The translations under genes were made by a program, and so were the position numbers. From IMG/VR virus record IMGVR_UViG_2061766007_004155: 20,000 nt of DNA; one strand, written 5' to 3'. This DNA is from an uncultured virus (IMG/VR IMGVR_UViG_2061766007_004155) (taxonomy: Duplodnaviria; Heunggongvirae; Uroviricota; Caudoviricetes). Under the pieces are notes generated by a model. The model searched no databases. It saw only the letters and a list, made by a program, of their open reading frames with translations, and was not told the DNA's origin. Every line of letters starts with the position of its first letter. Positions within the stretch are counted from its first letter, which is position 1. Shown in pieces: positions 2,141-9,897 of the stretch.

Positions 2141-3003
2141 GATTCTTTGTCGAAGAACTTCAACAAGCAATTGATAATTGCGGTATCGTAAGTTCTTGCA
2201 TCGTGACCACAGTTCGGTATGATAACCAAATCGCTATTGGCAGACAAATCTGGAACACCATTCAGGAACGTATTATACATCTCATGGGTCTGCGCATAGG
2301 CATTGTCTTTATCCCCGCACCCTGCATAGAAAAACGAAATCGAATAACGACCAATTTCAGAAATAACGTCTTTGATAGATGATGACAGGTCAGCGTGGAA
2401 AATAGATGAAGCGCCAAACCAAGAGAACAGGTCAATACATTCAGGGATAATGTACTTCGGAATCATTGTTGATGTGTAGCTGAAGCCGAATGTGCCGAAG
2501 TGTTCACGTGCGTTTGATATGGAAATACTGTCCGTTCCTTTAGCGTATGTGCTGTAGTTTGATATCATATACGGAAGCAAATCATAACGCAGTTCATTAA
2601 TAAGCTGATTCCCGTCCAACTCCATAACAGGATGACCCTCAACAGTAGCACCGTAATAGGGGAGAGTAACAATGATTGACGGCTCGATAACCTTTGCGTC
2701 GATAAGATTATCCAAAACATTCTGAAACTGAACACTATACAGAACAGGGGAGTATCTGTGCGCTCTGCTAAGATAACAGGAATACGGCATATCCATGCCA
2801 GGTAGCAGAACCATTACATTGTATTCTTTGAGAGTGTCGTACCCATAGGGAACGTAAATGCAAATAGGTTTCTTAAATGCTGTTGCGGATTTGCCGCTGT
2901 ACCAATGTGTATGGTACTGAATCTTAATTACTTCGCCTCTGCGCTTTGACTGCTTCCACAGAGTAGGATCATCTAACGATAAGCAGGGGTAATGAAAATC
3001 CAT
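2137..3003 (-). CDS. Alpha/beta-hydrolase, putative esterase (Fes/XynZ CE1-like)
   Basis: IYVPYGYD..EYNVMVLLPG N-terminal motif; ELRYDLLPY; GFSYT nucleophile elbow; CGDKD; GHD His. Confidence 0.8.
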   Translation of the reverse strand: MDFHYPCLSLDDPTLWKQSKRRGEVIKIQYHTHWYSGKSATAFKKPICIYVPYGYDTLKEYNVMVLLPGMDMPYSCYLSRAHRYSPVLYSVQFQNVLDNLIDAKVIEPSIIVTLPYYGATVEGHPVMELDGNQLINELRYDLLPYMISNYSTYAKGTDSISISNAREHFGTFGFSYTSTMIPKYIIPECIDLFSWFGASSIFHADLSSSIKDVISEIGRYSISFFYAGCGDKDNAYAQTHEMYNTFLNGVPDLSANSDLVIIPNCGHDARTYDTAIINCLLKFFDKES

Positions 3004-3314
3004 TATTTCTCTCCTTTGTATTTTCTTTCGCCGTCAGCACAGAACCATTCTCCATCATGGATATAACTTGCTTGCTTCGGGCAGAAACTTATATTCTTCT
3101 TTAAGTGTCTACAATCTTTACATCTTACTACTTCCACAACGTCGGCAGGATGCAACGCTTCTTTGTGCGCAATCCATCCAATATAGAATCTGCAAGTACC
3201 GCTGAAGTCTGCAACGCTGATTAATTCTTCTGGTTCAAAATTATTGTTTGTTACTTTTCTCTTGCAGTCCTTTGATGGACAGTCTGCCGAAGCACAATAA
3301 GTAATGTCAGCCAT
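3003..3314 (-). CDS. Cys-rich phage protein (ADVVEVVRCKDC...FCADGER C-terminal module)
   Basis: Recognisable phage module; coupled start and stop. Confidence 0.75.
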   Translation of the reverse strand: MADITYCASADCPSKDCKRKVTNNNFEPEELISVADFSGTCRFYIGWIAHKEALHPADVVEVVRCKDCRHLKKNISFCPKQASYIHDGEWFCADGERKYKGEK

Positions 3315-3531
3315 CTTCGATATCCTCAACCCATGTGCAAAACCTCATCCGCACACGCCCACATTTTGTGCAAGTTGCATTCGGCTTATTGCCTTGATAT
3401 TCAGGTATCTTTACCCTCATGTCGGGAGAAACGAACCTTCCGCACTTAGGGCATATTCGATAATAGCTATGGCAATACTCTCCATGACCGTAAACTACAA
3501 CAGGGACATTTTCTGAATATTCATCTGCCAT
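3307..3531 (-). CDS. Zinc-ribbon hypothetical protein
   Basis: CPKCG...CTKCG. Confidence 0.7.
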   Translation of the reverse strand: MADEYSENVPVVVYGHGEYCHSYYRICPKCGRFVSPDMRVKIPEYQGNKPNATCTKCGRVRMRFCTWVEDIEDG

Positions 3532-3534
3532 ATA

Positions 3535-3717
3535 TTAAGCCTCCGACTTCAACCATTCTAACCAAGCAAGATAGCATTTGCTTCTGTTTCCCTGACATTG
3601 CTCTGCGTTAATAGGGCATTGCCTGTCAATAGGGCAATCTGAGCAATAAGCTATATGGCTAATCCACTTTGCCAACTTCTTATCCTGCTTTGCTCTGATT
3701 TTATCCCCATTTTTCAT
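3535..3717 (-). CDS. Small Cys-rich phage protein (MxNGDKIR...WLEWLKSE type)
   Basis: AGGAG RBS; CxxC..C..C..C. Confidence 0.7.
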   Translation of the reverse strand: MKNGDKIRAKQDKKLAKWISHIAYCSDCPIDRQCPINAEQCQGNRSKCYLAWLEWLKSEA

Positions 3718-4376
3718 ATGTTTCTCCTAACTGATGTAGTAAATGCCTTTTCAACTGACCATCCACGCAAATAAAGCCTGTCATATAGCGTGTGATAGTT
3801 GATGCCAAGGCGGTCAGCCCAATAGGATAACTGCATAGTTTCGCCGTTGTATGTCAGCCATAGCGTTCGTGCTTGGTTATTGTTCTGCTCTCTGACGCTT
3901 ACCCAACGGCAGTTATTGGGGGAATAACCCTTACTCACATCAATGCGGTCTATTGTCAAATCGTCTGCGTACCCATGAGATAACGCCCATTCTTTGAACG
4001 GTTCAAAGTGTTTCCAATCCTCACAGACGGCAATCCCTTTCGCGCCGTATCTTTCCCACGATGTATCATTAGGGTTTGTACATCTTTGAATGATTCCAGC
4101 CCATTCCCGATAGAGCCTTGTGCCAACACCACCGTGAATGGTATTTCTTTCTGCACTCCGTTTTGCGGAACAGCATGAACAACGCTTTGTGTTGCCACTT
4201 GTAACGGAATTCTTACGAAGCACAACCTCGTTTCCGCAATCACATCTAAACAACCAATAGTGTTGACCACCCTTAACTCGGTTATCACGATGGTCAAATC
4301 TGATAGCCGTTAGTTCTCCAAACTTTTGCTGTGTAATATCCCTTGTCTTATTTGGTTGGAAACAAGTCCTACCCAT
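3714..4376 (-). CDS. HNH-type (beta-beta-alpha-Me) homing endonuclease
   Basis: KFGELT..WLFRCDCGN..CSC; RC..YGAKGIAVCEDW; LTIDRIDVSKGYSPNNCRW..EQNNN; C-terminal HTH-like segment. Start MGRT at 4376 after GGAGG. Confidence 0.9.
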   Translation of the reverse strand: MGRTCFQPNKTRDITQQKFGELTAIRFDHRDNRVKGGQHYWLFRCDCGNEVVLRKNSVTSGNTKRCSCCSAKRSAERNTIHGGVGTRLYREWAGIIQRCTNPNDTSWERYGAKGIAVCEDWKHFEPFKEWALSHGYADDLTIDRIDVSKGYSPNNCRWVSVREQNNNQARTLWLTYNGETMQLSYWADRLGINYHTLYDRLYLRGWSVEKAFTTSVRRNI

Positions 4377-6955: not shown

Positions 6956-7065
6956 TACTCACCATCCTCATCGTCATCGGAAGAATATGATTCTTCGCAT
7001 TCACTCTCATAGAAATCGTGGTTGGCATACCACTCTCCAAGGTCTTCACCATAAGTAAATTCCAT
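6955..7065 (-). CDS. 36-aa highly acidic peptide (not in ORF track)
   Basis: MEFTYGEDLGEWYANHDFYESECEESYSSDDDEDGE; overlaps both neighbours by 1 nt. Confidence 0.6.
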   Translation of the reverse strand: MEFTYGEDLGEWYANHDFYESECEESYSSDDDEDGE

Positions 7066-7280
7066 CACCAACCATCCTTCCACCTGCACCCATCGCAAGC
7101 ACCCTCGTGCTTTTTCTCGTACTCACCGCATCTCCAACACAGTTCGTTCTTGCAGTCTTTCAAATCAATCAGAGCAGTATCTACTTTCTGTAGAATGATT
7201 TGCAGTTCGGAATCATCTGCTATAACTTTCATCATTGACCGGACATTCTTAATCAATTCACACAGTTCGTCGTACTTCAT
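7065..7280 (-). CDS. Cys-rich phage protein (NELCxxCG...GACDGCRW)
   Basis: Coupled ORF; Cys motif. Confidence 0.75.
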   Translation of the reverse strand: MKYDELCELIKNVRSMMKVIADDSELQIILQKVDTALIDLKDCKNELCWRCGEYEKKHEGACDGCRWKDGW

Positions 7281-7921
7281 CACTCACCATCCTTCCGCAT
7301 GTCAGCACCGTGGGATTGCCTCCAACCTTTTGTTCTCAATCTTACAGGGCGATTAATGGCATCTTCTACAGACCACCCTGTGTTAAGCCGTTCTTTAAGT
7401 GTTGTTTTGCTGATGCCAATTTTTTCGGCAAGTTGGGTAAGCGTGTATTTATTCCCTTGGTACTCAATTATCCTGTTATTTCTCCTATTGTTCTGTTGTT
7501 CTTTCATGGTAACCCATCTGCAATTATTAGGGGAATAGCCTTTTTCGTTGTTTATCCTGTCAATGGAAAGACCGTCATTATATCCATGCTGAAATGCCCA
7601 TTTTGCAAATGGCAAATATGAATCCCATTCTTTGCAAATAGTTATTCCTCTCCCACCATATTCATTAAAATGTGGATGCTTATCGTATTCACATCTTGCA
7701 TGAATTGATTCCCATATTTTTCGGAGGCGATGATTGTTGTATAGTTCGCTTTCTGATATTCCTTTGATTACTTCATATCCTTTGCATTTTGTTTTACTGC
7801 GGTAACAACTTGCAATTGTGCATTGCACAACTCCAAGATATTCGCAAGCGTTTTTTTCTGATTGGAATACAAGATATTCGTCCCCTTTTTTTAGGATATA
7901 TGGTGATGTTTTATGTTCCAT
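7280..7921 (-). CDS. HNH-type homing endonuclease with NUMOD1-like N-terminal HTH
   Basis: Start MEHK after GGAGGAG; FQSEKNACEYLGV; RC..YGGRGITICKEW; LSIDRINNEKGYSPNNCRW..EQQNNRR. Confidence 0.9.
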   Translation of the reverse strand: MEHKTSPYILKKGDEYLVFQSEKNACEYLGVVQCTIASCYRSKTKCKGYEVIKGISESELYNNHRLRKIWESIHARCEYDKHPHFNEYGGRGITICKEWDSYLPFAKWAFQHGYNDGLSIDRINNEKGYSPNNCRWVTMKEQQNNRRNNRIIEYQGNKYTLTQLAEKIGISKTTLKERLNTGWSVEDAINRPVRLRTKGWRQSHGADMRKDGE

Positions 7922-8234
7922 GCTCTCCTCCGTTGTAACTGCCGCAGTTGGGGCAGAAGTTGTGAAGTGGTTGAACATGGATTTTTGTGAATACATACCC
8001 ACATTCAGAACATTTGTAACGGAAGATTTCAAGACCGTTTAATAATTCAATTCTGTCACCACCGTTGTCTTCCCACTTTCCATGCCTGACTTCCGCAACA
8101 TCTGCGGATGGGATGGAATCAATGGCCCGAGCCGCATCCCCACGAATGACCCAACAGTAACCGTCACCGTCTACCTTTGGCACAAGTTTTAGGATGGCGT
8201 TAAATGCCGCTTCTCTTTCGATGCAATCAGCCAT
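7911..8234 (-). CDS. Phage zinc-ribbon protein (ADVAEVRHGKW...CSECG...FCPNCG)
   Basis: Well-known Firmicutes phage module; AAGGAGG RBS. Confidence 0.85.
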   Translation of the reverse strand: MADCIEREAAFNAILKLVPKVDGDGYCWVIRGDAARAIDSIPSADVAEVRHGKWEDNGGDRIELLNGLEIFRYKCSECGYVFTKIHVQPLHNFCPNCGSYNGGEHGT

Positions 8235-8781
8235 CTGTTTCCTCCTTTGGCGGTTCGGGGAAATACGGAACGCACTTCCATGTCACACCGTTAATAGCGT
8301 TCTGCATTGTTTTCTTCGATACTCCGTATCTATCAGCAAGTTCTTGAAACGATGTTCCCTTATAGGCGCGTTCCCATCTCGCGTCTTTGACAGTTTTCTT
8401 CGTCAGCTTTGATGTTATTTGTTCTTCTCCAACCTTTACAACATTGCGCCCTTTGCGTTCTCTGTCGGCTACGTTGTCTGCTCTCGTTCCCAAAAACAGA
8501 TGCTCCGGGTTTATACAGGATGGATTATCGCATTTGTGGCACACTTCAAACCCGTCCGGGATTTCACCATTCCATGTGATGTATGCCAATCTATGCGCTC
8601 TTTCAGAACGACGCGTTCCGTCTGTTCGGCTACCAACTATTGTGTGTCCGTAGCCGCCTCTTTTGCATCCAGTCCACTCCCAACACCCAGATACGGGATT
8701 GACTTTCATGTTTGCTTTAAGACGTTCTTCAATTGGCATGGTCGGCATACCGCGTTTTCTTGCGCTATAATCAGGTTTCAT
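8227..8781 (-). CDS. HNH endonuclease (HNH_3 type) with C-terminal HTH
   Basis: GCWEWTG..GYG..RAHRLAY..VCHKCDNPSCINPEHLFLGTRADNVAD; SFQELADRYGVS. Confidence 0.92.
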   Translation of the reverse strand: MKPDYSARKRGMPTMPIEERLKANMKVNPVSGCWEWTGCKRGGYGHTIVGSRTDGTRRSERAHRLAYITWNGEIPDGFEVCHKCDNPSCINPEHLFLGTRADNVADRERKGRNVVKVGEEQITSKLTKKTVKDARWERAYKGTSFQELADRYGVSKKTMQNAINGVTWKCVPYFPEPPKEETDG

Positions 8782-9130
8782 TTAATCCCTCCGTACTTGG
8801 CAACGGCATCCAATGGGTTATGTCTTCCTGCATAAAAATTATCCATCGTCCATGATCGCAAACATCAAAGCATACTCTTGAAATATGGCGACCCCAAACT
8901 AAAACAGTATGGTCATTTTCCGGCAACCTCTCACTCACAGGAATCCACTTCGGCAACTGCGCTTGAAGTTCCTCTATGGCATCAGCTGCATCCAATTGCA
9001 AAACGGAATTGCAATTCCTACAATCACGGTCGCTCTTCATAGCCATACACCCAATTAATTCTTCCGCTTCTCCAGCGCAGTCATGTGTTCCGCAGTATCT
9101 AAGGTCTTTTATCAGTTCATCGTACTTCAT
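8771..9130 (-). CDS. DUF551-domain protein
   Basis: AADAIEEL; WIPVSERLPE...VLV...ITHWMPLP. Confidence 0.85.
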   Translation of the reverse strand: MKYDELIKDLRYCGTHDCAGEAEELIGCMAMKSDRDCRNCNSVLQLDAADAIEELQAQLPKWIPVSERLPENDHTVLVWGRHISRVCFDVCDHGRWIIFMQEDITHWMPLPSTEGLNET

Positions 9131-9150
9131 GTTTACTCTTCCATAACCTC

Positions 9151-9357
9151 CTACATTTCTACAGGCATACCAAATAGTGAGCAAATCCCACTCTCTTTAA
9201 CCCAACACGGGCAAGTTGAATTCACGTTTTCCATAGCCTGTATAGTTCTTAGATAAACAATTACATCAACAATAGCTTCTGCATAGTCAGGGTCTAACCT
9301 TTCAGCAATGCATTGCTCGGAATACCTTAACAGCCTGTTAATCAATTCTTCCAACAT
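9151..9357 (-). CDS. Hypothetical protein
   Basis: 68-aa ORF in operon orientation. Confidence 0.55.
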   Translation of the reverse strand: MLEELINRLLRYSEQCIAERLDPDYAEAIVDVIVYLRTIQAMENVNSTCPCWVKESGICSLFGMPVEM

Positions 9358-9432
9358 CTAAAAAACAACCCCCACCCTATAAAATCTATTGCTATAAAAA
9401 GTAACTCAAGTTGTACAAATCCGCAGAGCATA

Positions 9433-9897
9433 TCAGCCAAGCCTCCTCCGGCAGAACTCGGCAATCATAAGCGCATCGGCAATTCCGTCATCATCCGTTC
9501 TGCATTTCGGAGTACGTTTCAGAGATACATCAGGGAAGAGTTCTTTTGCGACCTGAATAGTACGGGCTTTCTTCTCCGCTTTTGAATAATCTTTAGAAAG
9601 GTTTAGGCTAAATGTGCGCTTCCAAGTTTGTGAAGGAATCAATTGAACAGGGATTTTGAATGCGTAACACATTCCCCTTACAAATCCCCAGTTCGTTCCG
9701 AAGTTGAATGTTGACGAGATACCTTGCCCAGGCATTGAACCAACTTTTTCGATTGCCATAACACAATCGTCTTTAGACCATCTATCTAAAGCTTCACGGT
9801 AATTTTCTTCATCGAATGGTATAATTTCCACCCCGTCATCAGAGATGCACACAAGCGCTCCTGAAGCCCCTGGGTCACAGCCAATGTATCTTTTCAA
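9433..9897 (-). CDS. RuvC-like Holliday junction resolvase (phage type)
   Basis: YIGCDPG (Asp), AIEKV (Glu), STFNFG, QTWK, DGIADALMIA (Asp); TTG start overlapping the recombinase stop. Confidence 0.88.
   Translation of the reverse strand: MKRYIGCDPGASGALVCISDDGVEIIPFDEENYREALDRWSKDDCVMAIEKVGSMPGQGISSTFNFGTNWGFVRGMCYAFKIPVQLIPSQTWKRTFSLNLSKDYSKAEKKARTIQVAKELFPDVSLKRTPKCRTDDDGIADALMIAEFCRRRLG

Follow-up and report, generated by a model that had tools for sequence, protein, structure and literature searches.

Replacement and capture of a phage DUF551 tail by an HNH endonuclease gene in its final codons

According to the available part of PMC3630166, the mobile endonuclease open reading frames (mORFs) of fungal mitochondria make gene hybrids in atp6, atp9, cox2, and nad3 of Glomus and in atp6 of Allomyces macrogynus. 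In Torulaspora and Lachancea yeasts, each integration of a WHO element exchanges the 3′ end of FBA1 (PMC7282813, available part). In Aeromonas phage Aeh1, insertion of mobE in nrdA gave the split gene tails derived from the insert (PMC3045599, available part). Here we analyze a stretch of 20,000 nucleotides from an uncultured virus of the Caudoviricetes (IMG/VR record IMGVR_UViG_2061766007_004155), hereafter the window, in which a free-standing HNH gene sits within the last codons of a DUF551 gene. The DUF551 protein ends in a substitute tail, STEGLNET, and its displaced tail, EPPKEETDG, forms the C-terminus of the nuclease.

As with the mORFs, an endonuclease open reading frame (ORF) of the window lies in the 3′ region of a host gene, the element supplies that gene with another C-terminus, and the native C-terminus is displaced downstream. 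However, going by the same part of PMC3630166, the new end in the fungal hybrids is a homologous diverged copy, whereas that in the window is the read-out of an unrelated eight-residue leader. The fungal enzymes are LAGLIDADG or GIY-YIG proteins, whereas that in the window is an HNH protein, and in the window the native end is translated with the nuclease and still serves the initiation of the next gene. A homologous spare end is not found in the window, where STEGLNET bears no likeness to EPPKEETDG. DUF551-like endings stand on both genes in the distant relatives L180, L181, and L182, as well as in locus L099, which carries a nuclease of another family; these loci are nearer to the fungal pattern.

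The WHO elements likewise lie in the 3′ end of the host gene and displace the native end, but they are nuclear and intein-derived, they bring a homologous replacement end, and their cleavage has been shown, whereas cleavage by the HNH protein of the window is a prediction (PMC7282813, as far as available). Like the gene in the window, mobE is a free-standing mobile gene of the HNH family in a phage gene, and sequences born of the insertion form tails of the host products. Unlike the DUF551 gene, nrdA is split midway into two functional halves, the new tails of which are needed for assembly, whereas in the window only nine residues are cut off, ending on the nuclease (PMC3045599, as far as available). 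I-HmuI (1u3e) has the same order of N-terminal HNH nuclease and C-terminal DNA-binding part, but is intron-borne. Free-standing HNH and GIY-YIG genes of T4-like, ICP1, and lactococcal phages show a comparable patchy presence near conserved genes, and the available parts of the two sources hold no description of a nuclease that reads into a displaced host tail (PMC10448857, PMC12724721). Nor was such a layout in phages found in the literature searched, a limited collection of main texts without supplements. The bypass in T4 gene 60, as presented in the available part of the report (bioRxiv 10.1101/2022.08.31.505936), has no bearing on the DUF551/HNH case. The principle is already established elsewhere; the present case differs by the HNH enzyme, by a spare end unrelated to that of the host, and by family-wide translation of the displaced end.

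Structure of the DUF551/HNH junction

All genes around the DUF551/HNH pair lie on the minus strand. The DUF551 gene in its present form (8771–9130) encodes 119 residues from an ATG at 9130 and comprises an N-terminal helical part, the DUF551 domain, and the substitute tail; in the ORF list its start is a TTG at 9184, which gives an ORF of 137 residues. The Pfam profile of DUF551 (PF04448) matches residues 79–130 of the 137-residue ORF with 42.5 bits (cut-off 22). Profile positions 1–65 of 68 are covered, and the final three are missing. The protein ends ...ITHWMPLPSTEGLNET, followed by the stop. The last host codon is CCA (8798–8800), which encodes the second proline of P-L-P, and the left junction is located between 8798 and 8797.

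The inserted cassette comprises 541 bases (8257–8797), as defined by the sequence, the junction alignment, and contigs from other samples. It consists of a leader with a ribosome-binding site and the HNH gene without a stop codon. The cassette edges read AGT... at 8797 and ...CCC at 8257, and its removal joins the P-L-P codons to GAA at 8256, giving EPPKEETDG and the stop. The 27 bases that encode the substitute tail STEGLNET and its stop (8771–8797) are also the leader, ribosome-binding site, and start of the HNH gene, with GGAGGG at 8787–8792 and the ATG six bases on (8781–8779), within the last DUF551 codons. The DUF551 frame closes eight codons past the junction, and the new tail is thereby of about the original length.

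The HNH_3 endonuclease gene (8227–8781), assigned with Pfam and PHROGs, encodes 184 residues and ends ...WKCVPYFPEPPKEETDG, followed by the stop. Its frame lacks a stop codon within the cassette and reads through the displaced DUF551 tail (EPPKEETDG and stop, 8227–8256) to the host stop. The displaced tail still carries AAGGAGG (8241–8247) and the ATG of the next gene (8234–8232), which overlaps the HNH stop. This next gene (7911–8234) encodes a zinc-ribbon protein of 107 residues (Pfam Zn_ribbon_8) and is translationally coupled to the captured tail. The junction products predicted from such a swap are ...PYFPEPPKEETDG and ...PLPSTEGLNET. An earlier note on this DNA, made by a model from the letters alone, had described both protein ends, and the sequence and Pfam agree with it in every detail. 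The note also had the ribosome-binding site and start overlap in the displaced tail right, and its estimate that excision of about 8260–8800 restores the native end is now narrowed to 8257–8797. The substitute tail with a ribosome-binding site of its own, which it also claimed, can be described more closely as the nuclease leader read in the DUF551 frame.

Comparison of occupied loci locates the left edge. In six aligned loci of the seven, the last host codon varies (CCA, CCG, or CCC), and the next ten bases, AGYACGGAGG, are constant, save for one synonymous C in L259. Since constant bases follow right after a variable codon, the left edge of the cassette is placed directly after P-L-P.

The HNH protein matches HNH_3 (PF13392, His-Me finger) with 55.5 bits over residues 61–104 (cut-off 24.8) and zf-His_Me_endon with 28.4 bits (cut-off 27), as well as the HNH endonuclease families of PHROGs. 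The nuclease motif spans residues 81–103 (bases 8473–8541), and a helix-turn-helix part spans residues 128–163 (bases 8293–8400). Residues C81, H82, C84, D85, N86, C89, N91, H94, and N103 are invariant in 31 sequences of 67–91% identity; by analogy, some of them are likely to be catalytic. With its motif residues invariant, the nuclease looks intact. In the AlphaFold model, the last helix comprises residues 156–163, nothing is structured after residue 163, and the confidence score (pLDDT) is 59 and then 43 over residues 171–184. In the model of the DUF551 protein, the last strand comprises residues 104–109 (ITHWMP), and residues 110–119 are coil. Both tails are thus predicted to lie outside the folded parts. 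A sequence search of the PDB with the HNH profile gave no match, and Foldseek with the HNH model found nothing in the PDB at E ≤ 0.001; the best match, a weak one, is I-HmuI (1u3e; E 0.017, probability 0.91).

Self-splicing of the 541 bases as an intron, or of their product as an intein, would also restore a normal DUF551 protein, as excision restores both the frame and the native tail. Phage group I introns are known to carry HNH genes of this kind, that of I-HmuI among them. However, no Rfam family matches positions 7000–9500 on either strand at E ≤ 1, and the ORF occupies all but 16 bases of the insert. A U is expected before the 5′ splice site of a group I intron, but in the six aligned occupied loci the insert is preceded by A, G, or C. 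An intein is excluded by the stop at 8771–8773 in the DUF551 frame and by the HNH gene lying in another frame. Splicing, which the earlier note had discounted too, can hardly explain the arrangement.

Distribution of the two tails and of the nuclease gene

The DUF551 protein has 133 matches in a large protein collection, the best 120 of which were taken for tail counts. Sixty-three of them carry the native tail, mostly EPPKE or near variants, 53 carry STEGLNET or a near variant, and the motif is absent from four. The exact ending PEPPKEETDG occurs in eight of the 120, e.g., P0009, P0011, and P0012, whose DUF551 domains rank among the nearest to that of the window. The same ending thus stands on the HNH protein and on native DUF551 proteins, and this is therefore not due to chance. 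The native site has the consensus ...CAYTGGATGCC-N-YT-N-CC-N (95 distinct sites), which continues GARCC-N-CC-N-AAR in the subset with E-[PQ]-P-K (15 sites shown).

The STEG-type tail is 7–9 residues long in 52 of the 53 proteins and 13 in one, and in 28 it is identical to the STEGLNET of the window. The domains that bear it are diverse, with a median pairwise identity of 36% (1326 pairs). Conversely, near-identical domains bear different ends: the occupied and empty members are 100% identical over 63 columns in the pair P0002/P0027, 96% in P0024/P0031, 93% in P0041/P0039, and 89% in P0050/P0001. One ending on diverse domains, together with twin domains that differ at the end, is the pattern that an inserted cassette predicts. 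Across many very different DUF551 genes, this one site either carries or lacks the cassette.

To relate tail type to gene content, DNA neighborhoods were collected as 300 loci from five different queries, and all ORFs in them were scored with profiles from the DUF551 and HNH protein matches. They contain 161 distinct DUF551 ORFs, 150 of them from loci not picked by an HNH query. The HNH gene directly follows all seven STE-type tails (the window, L081, L082, L083, L177, L179, and L259). Among the 154 ORFs with other tails, five have an HNH gene as a neighbor (L099, L180, L181, L182, and L185), and the remaining 149 have none. In the 150 ORFs not selected through HNH, the HNH gene accompanies the only STE-type tail (1/1) vs. 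1/149 of the others. The 7/7 linkage refers to the 300 loci and is not exhaustive, as the contigs of the 53 STEG-type proteins fall outside its scope. These counts, with the 63 native tails among the best 120 relatives, agree with the expectation of the earlier note that relatives free of the HNH gene run into an EPPKE-type tail, and a PSTEGL ending without the HNH gene was not encountered.

The variants of the substitute tail match the start of the HNH gene that follows: ...LNET goes with M-K-P-D, ...LK with M-I-D-N, and ...LNGG with M-E-G-N. Varying with the nuclease gene in this way, the substitute tail is a translation, in the DUF551 frame, of the leader and start of that gene. It is conceivable that STEG derives from a native S-P-P-K-E-G tail through the loss of six bases.

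The HNH protein has 1509 matches (protein clusters) in the large collection, the best 120 of which, at 67–91% identity, were analyzed. Of these, 114 fit a pattern of W-x-C-V-x-Y followed by a P-x-P-P-like tail; five of the remaining six have tail variants, and one continues into other sequence. Beyond PEPPK, the HNH endings vary (EETDG, EE, GE, DGE, and others) in the same ways as native DUF551 endings. In 80 genome loci of HNH relatives, which come from many phyla, the DUF551-type proline tail is absent from 73, and 44 of those 73 end within a few residues of a conserved W-x-H-[VIL]. The seven with the proline tail are the closest (41–71% identity), and a DUF551 gene lies directly upstream in five of them. 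Judged by these endings, tail capture is a mark of the whole nuclease lineage and not of this phage alone. The claim that the nuclease adopted the old tail thereby gains in breadth, and PEPPKE was not a general property of HNH relatives in unrelated contexts.

The shared end could also arise with no insertion at all, if DUF551 and HNH genes were ordinary neighbors and both needed a PEPPKE-like end for the AAGGAGG and the ATG-stop overlap. The K-E-E codons are indeed the ribosome-binding site of the next gene, and other gene families of these phages also end in conserved tails that bear such a site. However, P-E-P-P is not needed for a ribosome-binding site, yet is common to both proteins. DUF551 domains as similar as those of the first three pairs above bear either tail, the STEG tail always comes with an HNH gene in the DNA examined, and distant HNH relatives end right behind the last helix. 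We therefore regard an origin without insertion as very unlikely.

Some HNH genes open with the N-terminal motif of DUF551 proteins (M-(S)-E-W-I-S-V...) and end with a DUF551 tail: L084 2423–2998, L085 926–1522, and L086 903–1499. The same form occurs in eight of the best 120 HNH relatives (P0173, P0176, P0182, P0196, P0202, P0228, P0236, and P0239). These genes have neither the DUF551 core nor an upstream DUF551 gene, and their junctions differ among lineages. Their sequences resemble in-frame loss of the middle of the host gene after invasion, which suggests that the host gene can be lost. P0202 (246 residues) continues into a small cysteine-rich protein. Relative P0162 has a composite ending in which (T)EPPK is followed by ...DDFCSHGERKEGAD, and a motif of this type also ends other small cysteine-rich genes, such as that at 3003–3329 of the window, which ends ...WFCADGERKYKGEK.

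Mobility, proposed homing, and competing explanations

Identity among the HNH proteins encoded in the window, L081, and L082 is 92–97%, whereas their host DUF551 domains, which are 50, 73, and 76 residues long, are 48–50% identical. In L177, the HNH gene behind the STE-type tail (2498–3052) is broken by an in-frame stop into 145 and then 37 residues, and is probably a decaying copy.

Parts of the stretch are present in public sequencing runs labeled bovine gut and anaerobic digester, with no RNA run listed among them. The comparison used contigs of four such runs, X3–X6, none of which spans the whole stretch. A 480-base contig of run X4 covers 8227–8703 with six differences, and contigs of run X3 cover 8241–8373, 8406–8556, and 8554–8715 with one, zero, and zero differences, respectively. 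Run X3 leaves the window sequence at 8241, so that the nuclease and the E-P-P-K-E codons are common to both and the downstream sequence is not. HNH stretches of 99–100% identity are found in other flanks in contigs from the other samples. At the other junction, contigs of runs X3 and X5 match the DUF551 end as far as 8798 and then continue into other sequence; past 8798, the contig of run X3 has 16 letters whose complement codes for E-P-P-K-E.

A 374-base contig of run X6 matches 8732–8820, which includes the junction and the nuclease start, with four differences, and 8967–9042, in the N-terminal part of the host gene, with none. In the same contig, 209 other letters replace the 146-base DUF551 core of the window (8821–8966). 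The host gene beside the cassette is therefore mosaic.

We consider it highly probable that a free-standing HNH homing-endonuclease gene, encoding a nuclease domain and a C-terminal helix-turn-helix, entered the 3′ end of the DUF551 gene between the P-L-P and E-P-P-K-E codons. A free-standing homing endonuclease gene inside a conserved terminal motif is what the earlier note had put forward, and the twin domains, the linkage, and the junction contigs support it. The enzyme would recognize the conserved DNA that codes for THWMPLP/EPPKE(E) and would cut cassette-free alleles during mixed infection, after which recombinational repair would copy the cassette into the cut allele. The insert would thereby disrupt its likely target site, as the earlier note had proposed. 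The exchange of tails could be tolerated through the position of the tail outside the folded domain. Since the nuclease has no stop of its own, ribosomes would still terminate at the ATG-stop overlap of the next gene. By ending at the host stop, the HNH frame would keep the coupling, lowering polar effects and the cost to the phage.

Cleavage and homing by the HNH protein are inferred from sequence, and the cassette could instead be real but spread by ordinary homologous recombination between conserved flanks, with the HNH protein serving the phage in packaging, nicking, or competition. Both flanks, the codons of THWMPLP and of EPPKEE, are highly conserved DNA in otherwise diverse genes, and many unrelated genes of related phages share conserved tails with the ribosome-binding site of the next gene. 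However, HNH_3 with a helix-turn-helix is the layout of a homing enzyme, and the best fold match, weak as it is, is I-HmuI. The patchy distribution, the near-identical HNH proteins in very different hosts, and the decaying copy also speak against such a spread, as do three HNH genes in a 20-kb window. In addition, HNH genes that serve the phage adjoin terminase genes in the available part of PMC12724721, which is not so here. Spread by recombination, with no homing, is thus improbable.

Several points weigh against insertion by homing. The junction contigs of runs X3 and X5 match about 21 letters of the conserved motif and belong to genes of other phages; they mark the position of the junction and are not the empty copy of this phage. 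An empty allele of the phage in the window was not found, and the nearest native-tail domain (P0005) is 80% identical at the protein level. INPHARED holds no related phage record by blastn of 7200–9400; eight records, with 8–10% cover and 68–72% identity, match the second HNH gene only. A scan of viral contigs with the single DUF551 protein gave no match. A metagenome scan with an alignment of the DUF551 subfamily gave 44 loci, all at ≤41% identity except for a 21-residue match at 62% (L300), and no close empty allele. Furthermore, most of the presumed target can still be recognized at the right junction, so that the sequence gives no clear sign of an occupied allele being immune. In any one lineage, the event may have been a gain or a loss of the cassette. 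Finally, the exchange may have impaired the DUF551 protein instead of leaving it intact, since its new tail has no relation to the former one; the forms that have no DUF551 core would fit such impairment.

A probable second exchange next door and conserved gene ends

The zinc-ribbon gene downstream of the captured tail appears to have undergone a similar exchange. It is followed by a second HNH gene (7280–7921, minus strand) of the phrog_3377 family (PHROGs 2e-53), the start of which overlaps the swapped tail of the zinc-ribbon gene, SYNGGEHGT and stop (7911–7940, minus strand). The zinc-ribbon protein ends ...CPNCG-SYNGGEHGT, whereas in most of its homologues (80 loci) acidic residues come after C-P-x-C-G-A-[RKL]-M, a common form being ...CPNCGARMDKEDEHE. 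The second HNH protein ends ...SHG-ADMRKDGE, and ADMRKDGE (7280–7306) resembles a displaced zinc-ribbon tail. Many of the 120 listed relatives of this second HNH protein end ...NCGA[DKR]M..., and some forms of 163 residues stop at ...GWRQSA. From its sequence, this looks like a different nuclease using the same tail-swap strategy at another conserved gene end.

A third HNH gene (3714–4376, minus strand) is a paralogue of that at 7280–7921 (phrog_374, phrog_3377). Its likely start overlaps the ...EGKDG and stop of the upstream gene, and no captured tail is seen. The small gene after the second HNH gene (7065–7283, minus strand) starts with M-M-K-Y-D-E-L and in this resembles the DUF551 protein, whose N-terminal part (8951–9130) opens with M-K-Y-D-E-L-I-K. 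Relatives show this N-terminal module reshuffled separately from the DUF551 domain.

Locus L099 (231–1500) encodes a different endonuclease, with an N-terminus unlike that of the window HNH protein and an HNH profile match of 4e-10 to 7.5e-10. It sits after a DUF551 gene ending ...PLPNPPKE, and its own end, ...SWSHVSLPAAPQEVKSE, is of the DUF551 type. On this sequence evidence, tail capture may have occurred independently in L099, there with a spare end homologous to the native one.

Unrelated genes upstream of zinc-ribbon homologues (L001–L080) share short tails that overlap the next start, such as ...EAALRREQDG, ...ALRREQE, and ...ERRWSE. Conserved gene ends that bear a ribosome-binding site seem to be general in these phages. 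It is possible, if rather doubtful, that specialized HNH families use such ends in gut Clostridia phages (PEPPKEE..., CPNCGA-x-M..., and others) as their homing sites. Entry at these sites and reading into the old end would avoid polar damage in coupled gene chains. If homing recurred and the flanks were converted each time, it would drive module exchange at gene boundaries and help to keep the last codons, e.g., those of DUF551, near-identical in their DNA, and their conservation would in part be due to selfish DNA and not to the function of the proteins.

For annotation, the last 8–10 residues of many DUF551 and HNH proteins of gut phages have to be taken as junction products and not as native sequence. 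The locus offers a base-exact and well-replicated case in which a selfish nuclease gene would have entered a coding region with neither intron nor intein, probably leaving expression of the neighboring genes undisturbed. A large nuclease lineage (the 1509 clusters, with a captured tail in nearly all of the best 120) is tied to one conserved target, and its recognition site is therefore easy to guess. That two neighboring gene pairs show such exchanges suggests a strategy in routine use among these phages.

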